Shown here piece after piece: positions 1-5,554 of a DNA stretch of 64,000 nucleotides (positions are counted from its first letter, which is position 1; the number at the start of each line of letters is the position of its first letter). Origin of the DNA: Escherichia coli (lineage in GTDB: Bacteria; Pseudomonadota; Gammaproteobacteria; Enterobacterales; Enterobacteriaceae). A model generated the notes under the pieces. It did not search any database and was not told the DNA's origin. It saw only the letters and a program-made list of their open reading frames with translations. The DNA lies in assembly GCF_041248615.1 (NCBI RefSeq), contig NZ_CP158426.1; one strand, given 5' to 3'. The translations under genes were made by a program, and so were the position numbers.

Positions 1-503
1 CCGATTCGCTGGCCTTAAAAAGAGTGGAACTCGGCATTGTGACGTTCGGCCCGGTGCATGTGGAACAACCCTTTACCAGCGCCGCTAATTTTTTCCCGCC
101 CATCCTGTTTGCCCAGGGCGATACACCAATGGGCGCTGCCATTACCAAAGCCCTGGATATGGTAGAGGAGCGGAAACGTGAGTATCGTGCAAATGGTATT
201 TCGTATTATCGCCCGTGGATTTTCCTGATCACCGATGGCGCTCCAACCGATGAGTGGCAGGCTGCCGCCAACAAAGTGTTTCAGGGGGAAGAAGATAAGA
301 AGTTTGCCTTCTTTTCCATCGGTGTTCAGGGGGCGGATATGAAGACTTTGGCACAAATCAGCGTTCGTCAGCCTTTGCCACTGCAGGGATTACAATTCCG
401 TGAACTGTTTAGCTGGTTATCCAGTTCGCTGCGTTCGGTTTCCCGCTCCACGCCGGGAACGGAAGTTGTGCTGGAAGCGCCAAAAGGCTGGACGTCAGTG
501 TGA
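1..503 (+). CDS. yegL: von Willebrand factor A (vWA) domain protein, C-terminal part (5' end upstream of window)
   Basis: Frame is open from the window edge to TGA at 501-503 (track ORF 24..503 is only the part after an internal GTG). It carries a vWA/MIDAS-type motif [10 protein letters not shown], and its stop overlaps the next start (GTGA). Recognised as E. coli YegL. Confidence 0.85.
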
Positions 504-1261
504 GCTGGCGTCTGGTCTATGCATCAACCGTTGGAACGTCGCACATCAGCGCGGACTTGCCTTGCCAGGATGCCTGCCAGATGCAGGTTGCCTGGTTAAA
601 TGACCAGCAGCCATTATTGTCGGTATTTGTCGCCGATGGCGCAGGTAGCGTCTCGCAGGGTGGCGAAGGTGCGGAGCTTGCCGTTAATGAAGCGATGGCT
701 TATATGATGCAAAAATTGCAGGGCGGGGAATTGGGGCTTAATGATGTCCTCGCAACGGATATTGTGCTGACCGTTCGTCAGCGACTTTTTGCCGAGGCGG
801 AAGCCAAAGAATTAGCTGTTCGCGATTTTGCCTGCACGTTTATGGGATTGATTTCATCAGCTAATGGCACCCTGATTATGCAGATTGGCGATGGCGGCGT
901 GGTGGTAGATTTGGGGCACGGTCTGCAACTGCCGCTCACGCCGATGGTAGGTGAATATGCCAATATGACACACTTCATTACTGATGAAGATGCCGTTTCC
1001 AGACTGGAAACTTTCACCAGCACTGAGCGTGCGCATAAAGTTGCAGCATTTACGGATGGTATCCAGCGGCTGGCGTTAAATATGCTGGATAATTCTCCCC
1101 ATGTGCCTTTCTTTACCCCGTTTTTCAATGGGCTGGCGTCAGCAACGCAGGAACAACTCGATTTATTACCTGAATTGTTAAAGCAGTTTTTGTCCAGCCC
1201 GGCGGTAAACGAGCGTACGGATGATGATAAAACGTTGGCACTGGCGCTGTGGTTACCATGA
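500..1261 (+). CDS. pphC: PP2C-like Ser/Thr protein phosphatase
   Basis: 253-aa ORF with PP2C metal-site signatures [23 protein letters not shown] and RTDDDKT. GTG start overlaps the yegL stop. Recognised as YegK/PphC. Confidence 0.85.
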
Positions 1262-3198
1262 AACCCACTTTATATACTGCTACTGGTGAGTGCGTTACGC
1301 CAGGCTGTGAACTGGGCAAAGGTGGCGAAGGCGCGGTTTATGATATCGAGGAGTTTGTCGATAGCGTCGCCAAGATTTATCACACGCCGCCACCCGCCTT
1401 AAAACAGGACAAACTTGCCTTTATGGCTGCGACAGCTGACGCACAGTTGCTGAATTATGTCGCCTGGCCGCAGGCAACGCTTCACGGTGGACGAGGCGGA
1501 AAAGTTATCGGTTTTATGATGCCAAAAGTTTCTGGTAAAGAACCGATTCATATGATCTATAGCCCGGCACATCGTCGCCAGAGTTACCCTCATTGTGCGT
1601 GGGATTTTCTACTCTATGTTGCGCGTAATATTGCTTCATCTTTTGCTACGGTTCACGAGCACGGGCATGTCGTGGGTGACGTAAACCAGAACAGCTTTAT
1701 GGTAGGCCGTGACAGCAAAGTGGTGTTGATTGATAGCGACTCCTTTCAGATTAACGCCAACGGCACACTGCATTTATGCGAAGTCGGCGTGTCGCATTTT
1801 ACGCCGCCAGAGCTGCAAACCTTGCCATCATTTGTCGGCTTTGAACGCACCGCGAATCACGATAATTTTGGCCTTGCGTTGCTGATTTTTCACGTCTTGT
1901 TTGGTGGTCGGCATCCTTATTCCGGTGTACCGCTTATCTCTGATGCGGGTAATGCGCTGGAGACGGATATTGCCCATTTCCGTTATGCCTACGCGTCAGA
2001 TAATCAGCGACGTGGTTTAAAACCGCCGCCACGATCTATTCCGCTGTCGATGTTACCGGGCGATGTTGAAGCCATGTTTCAGCAGGCATTCACGGAAAGT
2101 GGCGTGGCAACCGCGCGTCCGACGGCAAAAGCGTGGGTAGCGGCACTTGATTTACTACGCCAACAGTTAAAGAAATGTACCGTTTCGGCAATGCATGTTT
2201 ACCCCGGTCATTTGACTGACTGCCCGTGGTGTGCGCTGGATAATCAAGGCGTTATCTATTTTATTGATCTCGGCGAAGAGGTCATTACCACCGGCGGTGA
2301 TTTTGTGCTGGCGAAAGTCTGGGCAATGGTGATGGCGTCAGTAGCACCACCAGCATTGCAACTGCCATTACCCGATCATTTCCAACCGACTGGCAGGCCG
2401 CTTCCTTTAGGCCTGTTACGGCGTGAATACATCATTCTGATTGAGATCGCACTGTCAGCGTTATCGCTGCTGCTTTGCGGCCTTCAGGTAGAACCGCGTT
2501 ATATCATTTTGGTTCCCGTGCTGGCGGCTATCTGGATTATTGGCAGCCTGACAAGCAAAGCGTACAAAGCAGAAATCCAGCAACGTCGTGAGGCGTTTAA
2601 TCGCGCGAAAATGGACTATGACCATTTAGTAAGCCAGATCCAACGGCTGGGCGGGCTGGAAGGTTTTATCGCCAAACGGGCGATGATCGAAAAAATGAAG
2701 GACGAAATTCTCGGGTTACCGGAAGAGGAGAAACGCGCTCTGGCAGCACTTCATGACACTGCAAGGGAACGGCAGAAGCAGAAGTTTCTGGAGGGATTTT
2801 TTATTGATGTTGCCTCTATTCCCGGCGTTGGCCCTGCGCGTAAAGCGGCGTTACGGTCTTTTGGTATTGAAACAGCCGCAGATGTTACCCGTCGTGGCGT
2901 TAAGCAAGTGAAAGGGTTTGGCGACCATCTGACCCAGGCGGTTATCGACTGGAAAGCGAGTTGTGAACGCCGTTTTGTGTTCAGGCCGAACGAAGCGGTA
3001 ACGCCTGCAGACAGACAAGCGGTACTGACTAAAATGGCCGCCAAACGACATCGGCTGGAATCGACGTTGACTGTCGGCGCGACAGAGTTGCAGCGATTCC
3101 GCCTTCAAGCTCCAGCACGGACCATGCCGTTGATGGAACCGTTACGTCAGGCGGCAGAAAAACTGGCTCAGGCGCAGGCTGAATTAAGCCGTTGCTGA
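1249..3198 (+). CDS. yegI: Eukaryotic-like (Hanks-type) Ser/Thr protein kinase with TM hairpin and C-terminal tandem HhH
   Basis: 649-aa track ORF from GTG 1249; ATG at 1258 gives an ATGA overlap with the yegK stop and may be the true start. Kinase motifs: Gly loop GKGGEGAVY, Lys in VAKIY, catalytic GDVNQNS, DFG-like IDSDSF, APE-like TPPE. Two hydrophobic helices and two helix-hairpin-helix motifs (IPGVGPARKAAL, VKGFGDHLTQAV). Confidence 0.85.
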   Translation: MVTMKPTLYTATGECVTPGCELGKGGEGAVYDIEEFVDSVAKIYHTPPPALKQDKLAFMAATADAQLLNYVAWPQATLHGGRGGKVIGFMMPKVSGKEPIHMIYSPAHRRQSYPHCAWDFLLYVARNIASSFATVHEHGHVVGDVNQNSFMVGRDSKVVLIDSDSFQINANGTLHLCEVGVSHFTPPELQTLPSFVGFERTANHDNFGLALLIFHVLFGGRHPYSGVPLISDAGNALETDIAHFRYAYASDNQRRGLKPPPRSIPLSMLPGDVEAMFQQAFTESGVATARPTAKAWVAALDLLRQQLKKCTVSAMHVYPGHLTDCPWCALDNQGVIYFIDLGEEVITTGGDFVLAKVWAMVMASVAPPALQLPLPDHFQPTGRPLPLGLLRREYIILIEIALSALSLLLCGLQVEPRYIILVPVLAAIWIIGSLTSKAYKAEIQQRREAFNRAKMDYDHLVSQIQRLGGLEGFIAKRAMIEKMKDEILGLPEEEKRALAALHDTARERQKQKFLEGFFIDVASIPGVGPARKAALRSFGIETAADVTRRGVKQVKGFGDHLTQAVIDWKASCERRFVFRPNEAVTPADRQAVLTKMAAKRHRLESTLTVGATELQRFRLQAPARTMPLMEPLRQAAEKLAQAQAELSRC

Positions 3199-3210
3199 GC
3201 CAGTTTTCAA

Positions 3211-4563
3211 TTAACGAAACACCACTTCCGCCCAGCGTGCCAGCCCGGCGGTGACGGAGCCAAAGTCATCGCCGCCTGCAATCGGAATGCCCGGCAACTG
3301 TTCTGCCAGCGCCTTTTTAATCAGCGGTGAACGGGCGCTACCGCCGGTCAGGTAGATAACGTCCGGTTTTTCCTGGGCGTTATCCAGGGCCAGTTGCACC
3401 TGTTCCAGAATCCGCGCCAGTGGCTGGCTGAGGGCGCTTTCCAGCCCTTGCTGGCTAATCAGCGTAGCCAGTTCATCGCTGATAAACGGCAGTGAGGCGC
3501 GGGTTTCCGCTACGCTTGAAAGCGCAATTTTGCTCTCTTCTGCGCTACGTACCAGGCGATAGCTTAAACGCTGACGCCAGACTTTCTGTAACAGGGCCAC
3601 TTTTTCCGGTTCGCGGGCATCGCGTACCAGATCGTTAAGCAGACGACCGTTGGCACTACTGTAGAAATCACTTTGCGCAGGGACGTCGTTGATGGCAACC
3701 GCATTCCACCACGGCAGAATCGGCAGGGCGATGCCTTTTTCGGTTTCGCCCCCCATGCCCAGTAACGGCATCAGGTTTTTAAACGCCAGTGCGATATCCA
3801 GATCGTTACCGCCAATACGGCAACCACTGTGACCCAGCAGGCTGGCTTCACGATCGAGACGCGAACGCCACTGCGGCCCCATCAGCAGCAATGAACAGTC
3901 AGTCGTACCACCGCCGATATCCACCACCAGCACCCGTTTTTCTTCCTGCAAGGTGGCTTCGTAATCCAGCCCAGCCGCGACCGGCTCGTACTGGAATACC
4001 ACATCCTTAAACCCGGCACGCTTCGCCGCGCGTTCCAGAATCCCCTGCGCCTGGGTGTTTGCTTCATCGCCGCCAAGCCCCTGGAAGTTGATAGGGCGAC
4101 CAATTACCGCCTGAGTAATCGCATCCGGCAGCTGTGCCTGCGCCTGCTGGCGAATGTGCAACATCATTGCGCAGACCAGATCCTCAAACAGCGCTACCTG
4201 CTGCGGTTTTAAGCCGCTGGCACCGAGGAACGATTTTGGTGATTTCACAAACCACACTTCTTCTGGATCATCAATGTACTGTGCCAGTGAGGAAAGACCG
4301 AACTGCACGCTTTTCGCCGTAACATCGATATCTTCTTCGCGGTTATAACGAATCGCCCGACGCAACAGCGCCTGCGTTTCATCGTCGTCTGCCGGAACAT
4401 CATGATGGCGGTACAGCCATTCGCTTACCGCTTCACGCGTTGGCGCGCAAAGCATTGAAGGCAGCAGCGTGCTGTCGTTTTCCATTTTCAGTAATTGCGG
4501 CTTACCGTCGCGCATGACCGCCACTGAACAGTTTGCTGTACCGTAATCAAAACCAATAAACAC
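3211..4563 (-). CDS. yegD: Hsp70/actin-fold ATPase family protein
   Basis: Motifs GFDYGTANCSVA (phosphate-1), VVDIGGGTTDCSLL and IYLTGGSARSP. Track ORF 3211..4626 trimmed to GTG at 4563, which gives the conserved MFIGFDYGT N-terminus (450 aa as I recall for YegD). Confidence 0.85.
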   Translation of the reverse strand: MFIGFDYGTANCSVAVMRDGKPQLLKMENDSTLLPSMLCAPTREAVSEWLYRHHDVPADDDETQALLRRAIRYNREEDIDVTAKSVQFGLSSLAQYIDDPEEVWFVKSPKSFLGASGLKPQQVALFEDLVCAMMLHIRQQAQAQLPDAITQAVIGRPINFQGLGGDEANTQAQGILERAAKRAGFKDVVFQYEPVAAGLDYEATLQEEKRVLVVDIGGGTTDCSLLLMGPQWRSRLDREASLLGHSGCRIGGNDLDIALAFKNLMPLLGMGGETEKGIALPILPWWNAVAINDVPAQSDFYSSANGRLLNDLVRDAREPEKVALLQKVWRQRLSYRLVRSAEESKIALSSVAETRASLPFISDELATLISQQGLESALSQPLARILEQVQLALDNAQEKPDVIYLTGGSARSPLIKKALAEQLPGIPIAGGDDFGSVTAGLARWAEVVFR

Positions 4564-4696
4564 GAAATAATCCCCATGCCGGTGAAGAAGGGGCGTGACT
4601 TTAGCGAAATGTTGCCGTCGCGACAACCGGAATATGAAAGCAAAGCGTAGCGTCTGAATAACGTTTATGCTGAAAGCGGATTAACAAGGAGATGCG

Positions 4697-5554
4697 ATGT
4701 ATACCCTGAACTGGCAGCCGCCGTATGACTGGTCGTGGATGTTGGGATTTCTCGCCGCCCGTGCGGTGAACGGTGTGGAAACGGTCGCTGACGATTATTA
4801 TGCCCGTAGTCTGGCGGTGGGCGAATATCGCGGCGTGGTGACTGCTATTCCGGATATAGCCCGCCATACTCTGCACATAAATTTAAGTGCAGGTTTAGAA
4901 CCTGTTGCCGCAGAGTGTCTGGCGAAAATGAGCCGCCTGTTTGATCTGCAATGTAACCCGCAGATTGTTAACGGTGCGTTGGGCAAGTTAGGCGCGGCGC
5001 GGCCCGGATTGCGTTTACCCGGCAGTGTTGATGCTTTTGAGCAGGGCGTGCGGGCGATTTTAGGCCAACTGGTGAGCGTGGCGATGGCGGCAAAATTGAC
5101 CGCCAGAGTGGCACAGCTTTATGGCGAACGGCTGGATGATTTTCCGGATTATGTCTGCTTCCCCACGCCTCAGCGGCTGGCAGCAGCCGACCCGCAGGCA
5201 TTAAAAGCGTTAGGTATGCCGTTGAAACGGGCAGAGGCGCTGATTAATCTGGCAAATGCGGCGCTGGAGGGCACCTTACCAATGACAATTCCGGGCGACG
5301 TAGAGCAAGCGATGAAAACGCTGCAAACTTTTCCGGGTATCGGGCGCTGGACGGCGAATTATTTCGCCTTACGTGGCTGGCAGGCGAAAGATGTTTTCCT
5401 GCCGGATGATTATCTGATTAAACAGCGATTTCCGGGAATGACACCGGCACAAATCCGCCGTTATGCCGAACGCTGGAAGCCCTGGCGTTCTTATGCGCTG
5501 TTGCATATCTGGTATACGGAAGGCTGGCAACCAGACGGAACGGACGAATTGTAG
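4697..5554 (+). CDS. alkA: 3-methyladenine DNA glycosylase II
   Basis: 285-aa ORF with an HhH-GPD glycosylase region (FPGIGRWTANYFALRGW ... LPDDYL). The N-terminus MYTLNWQPPYDWSWMLGFL is recognisable as AlkA. Confidence 0.9.
   Translation: MYTLNWQPPYDWSWMLGFLAARAVNGVETVADDYYARSLAVGEYRGVVTAIPDIARHTLHINLSAGLEPVAAECLAKMSRLFDLQCNPQIVNGALGKLGAARPGLRLPGSVDAFEQGVRAILGQLVSVAMAAKLTARVAQLYGERLDDFPDYVCFPTPQRLAAADPQALKALGMPLKRAEALINLANAALEGTLPMTIPGDVEQAMKTLQTFPGIGRWTANYFALRGWQAKDVFLPDDYLIKQRFPGMTPAQIRRYAERWKPWRSYALLHIWYTEGWQPDGTDEL

Follow-up and report, generated by a model that had tools for sequence, protein, structure and literature searches.

The first 3,198 positions of the window (the whole 64,000-nucleotide stretch of Escherichia coli DNA analysed here, contig NZ_CP158426.1) carry the uninterrupted yegL-pphC(yegK)-yegI operon, that is, the 3' part of yegL followed by pphC and yegI, all on the + strand. 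It is virtually certain that these are yegL, pphC and yegI and that the three-protein module they encode (YegLKI hereafter) has a TerY-P-type architecture, combining a vWA protein, a PP2C-type Ser/Thr phosphatase and a Ser/Thr kinase. We find that the family to which it belongs behaves as a self-contained mobile module, often embedded amid defence genes. A role in genetic conflict or DNA sensing, directed against phages or plasmids, is the function that we favour, and we regard that reading as evenly poised between right and wrong. The locus, its architecture, the yegJ polymorphism discussed below and the question of function have all been published already, and YegLKI is thus a known unknown rather than a new system; what we add is a comparative framing and a sharper hypothesis.

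The yegL reading frame is open at the window start and ends in a TGA stop at 501-503, and each gene of the triad overlaps the next:

1..503, + strand: 3' part of yegL (codons ~54-219 plus stop), TerY-type vWA protein; open reading frame (ORF), RefSeq coding sequence (CDS) and Pfam VWA match
500..503, + strand: GTGA overlap, the pphC GTG start (500-502) with the yegL TGA stop (501-503); read from the sequence
500..1261, + strand: pphC (yegK), PP2C-type Ser/Thr phosphatase of 253 amino acids (aa), GTG start; Pfam PP2C_2 match
1258..1261, + strand: ATGA overlap, the yegI ATG start (1258-1260) with the pphC TGA stop (1259-1261); read from the sequence
1258..3198, + strand: yegI, membrane-anchored Ser/Thr kinase of 646 aa; ORF, and 'protein kinase YegI' in RefSeq

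The same-strand triad and both overlaps are exactly as the first-pass annotation of this DNA had described them, and its provisional choice of the ATG at 1258 as the yegI start matches RefSeq as well: WP4-S18-ESBL-07, a strain 100% identical to the window over 1-3600, is annotated with identical boundaries for the three CDS, under the names yegL (vWA domain protein), pphC (Ser/Thr phosphatase) and yegI (protein kinase), followed by yegD. The vWA, PP2C and kinase identities assigned from motifs also hold for all three proteins, except that the DxSxS part of the metal-ion-dependent adhesion site (MIDAS) of YegL lies upstream of the window start, with only Thr94 and Asp131 inside it.

This operon, at this site, has been described by Rajagopalan and Dworkin (J Bacteriol 2018; FEBS Lett 2020), who reported the kinase/phosphatase pair, the 4-nt pphC/yegI overlap and a yegJ difference between K-12 and B strains, with no known signal. 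The window has the B-strain (REL606) arrangement, without yegJ; it differs from the published operon only in allelic changes, and from K-12 in the C-terminus of PphC and the N-terminus of YegI. In the literature to 2026 no physiological signal or substrate for YegI/PphC is reported, and no study assigns the pair a physiological function. The earlier statement that no signal, substrate or phenotype is established was therefore right for the first two and slightly overstated for the third, since overproduced YegL and YegI are both reported DNA-damage-up proteins, which raise endogenous DNA damage, and recurrent mutation of yegI has been reported from long-term evolution.

The assignment to TerY-P was borne out when the three proteins were aligned directly with those of a ter-cluster triad from a Klebsiella IncFIB plasmid (L088:7071-10331), which comprises TerY vWA paralogs, a 577-aa PP2C protein and a 499-aa kinase. 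YegL is 31% identical to the vWA protein of this ter cluster over 181 aa (E=8e-26), and tblastn matched it to plasmid genes annotated as TerY or VWA at 1e-16. PphC is 28% identical to the ter-linked PP2C domain (E=4e-6), and the match of YegI to the ter-linked kinase (E=6e-6) spans the end of the kinase C-lobe together with a zinc ribbon, whose CxxC lines up with the C307/H313/C322/C325 ligands of YegI. A citing paper describes TerY-P kinases as zinc-ribbon fusions. Since the match fits that description, YegLKI falls within the TerY-P triad, which, as citing papers relate, was defined from ter neighbourhoods (Anantharaman, Iyer and Aravind, 2012). The module indeed presents a TerY-type vWA protein, an adjacent PP2C phosphatase, a kinase with a zinc ribbon, and co-orientation and co-inheritance across taxa. 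Linkage to ter or DNA-processing genes is the feature that it lacks, there being no ter genes within 8 kb on either side of the E. coli triad, and the links of its relatives to restriction-modification (RM), Wadjet, Gabija, Qat and DUF4236 genes are variable and inconsistent; such linkage is a frequent TerY-P association rather than a strict requirement.

YegLKI thus resembles ter-linked TerY-P in uniting, within a single operon, the genes for a TerY-type vWA protein, a PP2C phosphatase and a Ser/Thr kinase, but the two differ in build. The ter-linked PP2C protein has 577 aa against the 253 of PphC, YegL is without the TerY-C domain, and the 499-aa ter-linked kinase is without the transmembrane (TM) hairpin, coiled-coil stalk and double helix-hairpin-helix, or (HhH)2, head of YegI. 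On a further plasmid, the IncHI2 plasmid p100R (L087:12061-17429), the ter-linked triad appears from annotation to have been cut when set against that of the IncFIB plasmid: the gene after TerY-C encodes 236 aa, not a 577-aa PP2C protein, and the position of the kinase is taken by ISApl1-mcr-1-pap2-ISApl1.

The TerY-P systems that have been tested with phages appear not to be close relatives of YegLKI. According to papers that cite Gao et al. (2020), the TerY-P triads of that study protect against T7-like phages, and their kinase has a C-terminal OB fold. They follow the same three-domain logic in a stand-alone cassette, but no OB fold is present in YegI, which has instead a zinc ribbon, TM hairpin, coiled coil and (HhH)2, and YegLKI is not closely related to this system. 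Costa et al. (2024) described a P. aeruginosa TerY-P variant that is missed by defence-finders and protects against Autographiviridae, with survival of the infected cells. The cloning and sequencing primers of that work match none of the loci that we retrieved, and no P. aeruginosa-named protein occurs among the 120 best relatives of the Pseudomonas YegI homologs; we lean towards the view that this variant is not of the YegLKI type.

Full-length YegI homologs (about 646 aa) are widespread. A first search gave 1,544 matches, and a genome scan found them in 232 species-level genomes, from Proteobacteria, Acidobacteria, Nitrospira, Planctomycetes, Verrucomicrobia, Actinobacteria and Chloroflexi as well as from one Methanoregula metagenome-assembled genome. 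Whether the three genes co-occur and are co-oriented outside E. coli had been proposed as a test of the triad, and the result was uniform: the vWA-PP2C-kinase order and orientation are kept in 75/75 loci, counting those with at least 1.5 kb of upstream sequence. Of 70 non-Escherichia relatives, 57 have a 4-nt overlap available at the vWA/PP2C junction and 6 a 1-nt overlap; at the PP2C/kinase junction, 24 of the 70 show a 4-nt overlap and 40 a gap of 0-20 nt. The recurrence of these overlaps marks translational coupling as a conserved feature. Median identity to the E. coli proteins across the same 70 loci is 71% for YegL, 52% for PphC and 50% for YegI, so that the vWA partner is the most constrained of the three. 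No fourth gene proved to be conserved when we looked for one among the relatives; DUF4236, with 6 loci, made up the largest additional cluster.

The ~360-390-aa DUF4236 protein is encoded directly beside the YegLKI-type triad in these 6 loci, out of about 70 (L016:5294-6424, - strand; L020:5390-6469, - strand; L022:10465-11604, + strand; L025:3578-4750, + strand; L035:9957-11054, + strand; L045:3331-4473, + strand), and a DUF4236 gene also adjoins terW/TerY in an IncHI2 ter cluster (L087:6838-8046). The link between TerY-type vWA genes and DUF4236 is thus a recurrent one.

It is the surroundings of the relatives that suggest a connection to genetic conflict. On contigs annotated with Pfam, the Klebsiella spallanzanii triad lies beside GmrSD, type I RM, SymE and BrnA; that of Piscinibacter beside SNase, ScoMcrA/NOV_C, an SLFN-type helicase, a MazG-like protein, BrxR and JetB; and that of Chromobacterium beside AbiH, a KAP NTPase, a pair of AAA+ and S8 protease genes, and a Tn7-like transposon. 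A scan of 143 immediate neighbours at 37 loci gave matches to JetA, WYL, type I restriction and methylase subunits, GajA, QatA and QatC, and further to cytosine methylases, HNH, SNase, integrases and transposases. Taken by system, the defence-related links of the relatives thus comprise RM, Wadjet, Gabija, Qat, GmrSD, AbiH and Tn7 genes. Roughly 8% of the 143 neighbours are bona fide defence genes, which is above a typical genomic background, although this is a rough estimate with no matched control. Homologs are also carried by large conjugative plasmids and megaplasmids of Pseudomonas (including pQBR103), Agrobacterium, Rhizobium, Cupriavidus and Ralstonia.

The kinase of YegLKI can be divided as follows:

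1258..2163, + strand: kinase domain, aa 1-~302, atypical (VGDxxQxS catalytic loop; DSD instead of DFG); from invariant motifs
2164..2247, + strand: zinc ribbon or knuckle, aa ~303-330 (C307, H313, H318, C322-P-W-C325); from the alignment and the AlphaFold2 (AF2) model
2410..2577, + strand: hydrophobic hairpin, aa ~385-440, two TM helices; from AF2 and the published topology
2578..2799, + strand: coiled-coil stalk, aa ~441-514
2800..2997, + strand: (HhH)2 module, aa ~515-580 (IPGVGPARK...FGIETAADV; VKGFGDHL); from motifs and AF2
3004..3192, + strand: C-terminal long helix, aa ~583-645, packing back along the stalk; from AF2

The profile searches recommended in the first-pass annotation succeeded for VWA and PP2C only. 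The Pfam Pkinase model (PF00069) did not match E. coli YegI even at E<=10, and HHH_5 matched with E=0.0011, under its gathering score. Because the Pkinase search was empty, we call YegI a kinase on the strength of its motifs, of homolog annotations (precomputed PF00069 matches exist for Pseudomonas and other YegI homologs) and of its published activity. Across 40 homologs the invariant kinase motifs are G20xG22G23 (GKGGEG), VAK39 and GD141VNQNS, including N143, together with D159-S-D161-S162, which holds the metal-binding Asp, and the APE-like T182PPE185; the departures from canonical motifs are DSD in place of DFG and VGD in place of HRD. Weak matches were obtained to the kinase models PD-T4-6, MkoA and LanL. 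In vitro, YegI autophosphorylates on Ser in a Mn/Mg-dependent manner despite its unusual VGD/DSD motifs, and PhoA-LacZ fusions gave a two-pass membrane topology with both termini in the cytoplasm (Rajagopalan and Dworkin).

Beyond the catalytic domain, the zinc-ligand residues are invariant or nearly so and fall in a region with two short strands in the AF2 model, whereas the hairpin block is variable in the alignment and poorly conserved in sequence. The AF2 model of full-length YegI has a mean predicted local distance difference test score (pLDDT) of only 69, with values <50 in the catalytic region, and was for that reason excluded from our fold search; its two hydrophobic helices, at 389-408 and from 418 onward (~389-440), nevertheless agree with the published two-pass topology. 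The C-terminal fragment was modelled with much higher confidence (pLDDT 94.6). The predicted C-terminus is all-helical, passing from the TM hairpin through the coiled coil and (HhH)2 to the long helix, with the HhH region folded into a compact globule of helices where the stalk ends and the long helix corresponding to helices 154-216 of the fragment model (583-645 of the full-length one). G523/G525 and G553-F-G555 of the HhH motifs are invariant or near-invariant. The stalk and HhH module alone retrieved 1,241 representative clusters at E<=1e-10, and, among the best matches listed, the full-length proteins that bear the module have ~640-655 aa. A search of the PDB with a YegI profile and with YegL returned no solved-structure relative (best E about 0.1).

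The other two proteins are more conventional. YegL matches Pfam VWA at 2.9e-7 for the fragment in the window and at 8.7e-10 at full length; it is a cytoplasmic protein with no signal peptide, and its MIDAS metal site is intact, D27xS29xS31, T94 and D131 being invariant in 71 homologs. In the same 71 homologs, four serines of its C-terminal tail (S193, S195, S200 and S202, within aa 191-205, window 420-480) are also invariant, and a W-[LV]-S-x-S motif resembling this tail occurs in TerY as well; the Ser-rich tail may accept phosphate or may have a structural role. PphC matches Pfam PP2C_2 at 1.6e-50, with its metal-binding Asp residues D24, D46, D131, D186 and D241-243 invariant in 73 homologs. 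It dephosphorylates YegI in vitro, and the D46N variant is inactive (Rajagopalan and Dworkin).

From these features a working scheme can be proposed. YegI is held in the inner membrane by its two-helix hairpin, with both ends cytoplasmic, and autophosphorylates serines of its activation loop; PphC strips these phosphates and so keeps the kinase off, as others have shown in vitro. The cytoplasmic C-terminal half, if the confident AF2 model is correct, would form a coiled-coil stalk bearing the (HhH)2 head, and this head is, from what is known of the HhH family, a putative sequence-independent DNA-binding module. A likely trigger would then be incoming or damaged DNA, met at the membrane and coupled to activation of the kinase. 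YegL would be an obligate third partner, serving as a phospho-regulated output or as an adaptor, a role suggested by its cytoplasmic location, intact MIDAS, conserved Ser-rich tail and highest conservation of the three. In E. coli the module is a fixed part of the core genome and shows hardly any expression under laboratory conditions, and the DNA-damage-up effect of YegL and YegI and the recurrent yegI mutations fit an activity that is costly, or directed at DNA, once it is on.

That a mobile, plasmid-borne family should be found beside defence genes, and that other TerY-P triads should block T7-like phages, makes conflict or foreign-DNA sensing the most likely function among those that we consider. 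A stronger form of the proposal, in which YegLKI is a distinct and widespread TerY-P subtype that defence-finders miss, with a membrane-tethered kinase that senses DNA, foreign or damaged, at the inner membrane through an (HhH)2 head on a coiled-coil stalk, PphC setting the threshold and YegL executing or relaying the response, is tentative, and we hold it to be rather less likely to be right than wrong. If it were true, the E. coli core genome would carry a cryptic innate-immune or DNA-surveillance kinase switch. YegI and PphC form one of the few Ser/Thr kinase-phosphatase pairs of E. coli; the usual test strain, K-12, has a rearranged version of the operon, which may explain the meagre results of screens in that strain. 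The comparative picture, with its invariant triad, most-conserved vWA protein, plasmid and defence context and DNA-binding-type head, narrows the range of worthwhile experiments.

Several observations weigh against a conflict role. B strains carrying an intact operon are standard, fully sensitive hosts of T7, and the operon at its native expression evidently does not stop that phage. DNA binding by the HhH head is a prediction from the model and motifs, and the Pfam HhH match is sub-threshold. Many neighbours of the relatives are ordinary metabolic genes, and neither the phage genomes of INPHARED nor the viral contigs of IMG/VR yielded a relative. No condition of robust expression for yegI or pphC is reported in the literature, and no phage experiment on YegLKI is to be found in its searchable part. 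With the PADLOC TerY-P models, YegL scored E=0.01 and PphC and YegI gave no match even at E<=10; it should be noted that, in a control, neither the classical ter-linked triad nor that of pQBR103 was recognised by the same models, so they are narrow and this negative is weak evidence. Finally, the locus (1-3600) was found by megablast in 5,416/5,426 complete E. coli genomes (99.8%), always at the same site, and its GC content (0.48-0.53) is that of the E. coli average with no compositional anomaly; such core status is unusual for a defence system.

This fixation at one site with normal GC, together with purifying selection on the triad, is what one would expect if YegLKI were instead a housekeeping or stress switch that senses metal, oxyanion or DNA-damage stress, a role suggested for systems associated with Ter, and tunes physiology through Ser/Thr phosphorylation of cellular proteins. 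The homology of YegL to TerY of tellurite-resistance clusters and the DUF4236 gene common to ter clusters and some YegLKI triads point in the same direction, as do the DNA-damage-up phenotypes on overproduction, and the repeated appearance of yegI mutations in long-term evolution hints at an influence on fitness in the absence of phages. However, the triad is patchy across phyla outside Escherichia (Klebsiella relatives are 62% identical and those of Betaproteobacteria 60%), and its carriage on plasmids and frequent place in defence or mobile islands are atypical for housekeeping signalling. In E. coli there are, moreover, no ter genes within 8 kb, and no inducing stress condition has been reported. 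On balance we think such a switch somewhat unlikely, and a conflict or DNA-sensing role remains the function that we favour.

Within E. coli, the window's strain is about 95-97% identical in nucleotide sequence to most genomes over 1-3600, and at least 99% identical to only 14/5,426; its lineage is thus a relatively divergent one within the species. Compared with a K-12-like genome, the synonymous divergence (dS) is similar for the genes across the region (0.07-0.19; flanking genes about 0.07-0.13), so the ~3-4% divergence reflects the strain lineage and is not specific to the locus. The nonsynonymous divergence (dN) is 0.027 for pphC, 0.017 for yegI and 0.006 for yegL, against 0.000-0.007 for flanking genes, and dN/dS is 0.14, 0.14 and 0.05, respectively. 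All three genes are therefore under purifying selection, with the enzymes evolving faster, and are not decaying. Positive selection at the level of whole genes was considered and is rejected by these dN/dS values.

These figures bear on whether the E. coli operon might be a cryptic remnant, formerly mobile but by now silent, of no use to the cell and in slow decay. Expression has gone undetected under tested conditions, the dN of pphC and yegI is 3-10 times that of flanking genes, yegI is repeatedly mutated in long-term evolution, and the yegJ segment splits the operon in 36% of genomes and rewrites the first ~17 codons of yegI. Nevertheless, dN/dS ratios of 0.05-0.14 are far from 1, at least 80% of the region is kept in 5,400/5,426 genomes, the E. 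coli proteins retain the catalytic, MIDAS and zinc residues that do not vary across the family alignments, and the purified proteins are enzymatically active. We consider a decaying remnant improbable.

The first-pass annotation was right that K-12 has yegJ between the two enzyme genes: in the K-12-like genome, yegJ (DUF2314) lies on the opposite strand between pphC and yegI, and it is absent from the window. The strain does carry the uninterrupted operon, as had been suggested, but this is the common state rather than a peculiarity, since the 725-bp yegJ segment is present in only 1,934/5,426 complete genomes (36%), which makes the intact form (about 64%) the majority. The segment is a replacement and not a simple insertion, in that it alters both the end of pphC (its last two codons) and the beginning of yegI (its first ~17); its span in the K-12-like genome is L002:9260-9984, compared with window 1250-1310. 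In one strain an IS1 lies within yegJ. A 2026 paper reports that YegJ binds RNase E and is toxic when overproduced, and it still calls the YegI/PphC pathway unknown; overproduced YegJ is further reported to be membrane-damaging, and yegJ overexpression to induce yegD.

On the chromosome the operon lies between ibs/mdtABC and yegD, the latter encoding an Hsp70-like protein on the other strand, convergent with yegI and ending 12 bp from it (window 3199-3210). No terminator-like hairpin was detected in this 12-bp gap, and a scan of window 1-5000 gave internal promoters and terminators not above chance and no Rfam match; antisense ORFs across the operon are short and unsupported. The closeness of yegD, its linkage to the triad in all Escherichia species examined and its induction on yegJ overexpression could be taken to mean that YegLKI is a local regulator of its neighbours, either of YegD downstream or of the MdtABC efflux pump or Ibs toxins upstream. 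This is very improbable, as the yegD linkage is restricted to Escherichia (0/70 other loci) and the triad travels without any conserved neighbour.

Two further kinds of kinase system invite comparison with YegLKI. The PpkA/PppA/Fha1 pathway of the P. aeruginosa H1 type VI secretion system (T6SS) also pairs a Hanks-type membrane kinase with a PP2C phosphatase and uses a vWA domain as a sensing or partner module. Its vWA domain, however, is periplasmic and fused to the kinase, its output is an FHA protein, and its genes lie in the T6SS cluster, whereas YegL is a separate vWA protein without a signal peptide, and neither FHA-domain substrates nor T6SS genes were found in the 19.6-kb annotated region or among the conserved neighbours of the relatives. 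PD-T4-6, a single-kinase phage defence, is the best PADLOC match of the YegI kinase core (E=2e-4), but this match is weak and covers the catalytic core only, and single-kinase defences (PD-T4-6; Stk2-type kinase-mediated abortive infection) are without vWA or PP2C partners.

Two minor observations concern the genes on either side. Upstream of yegL, Ibs-family type I toxin genes number three in the window's strain and two in the K-12-like genome (spans compared: L001:6907-7623 and L002:7233-7621, respectively). Downstream, alkA (window 4697-5554, + strand) is labelled 'frameshifted' by RefSeq in the identical strain; over 280 aa the AlkA ORF of the window shares 97% identity with the K-12 protein, from which it departs only at its last residues, with a tail 3 aa longer, and judging from this sequence the gene is probably functional.

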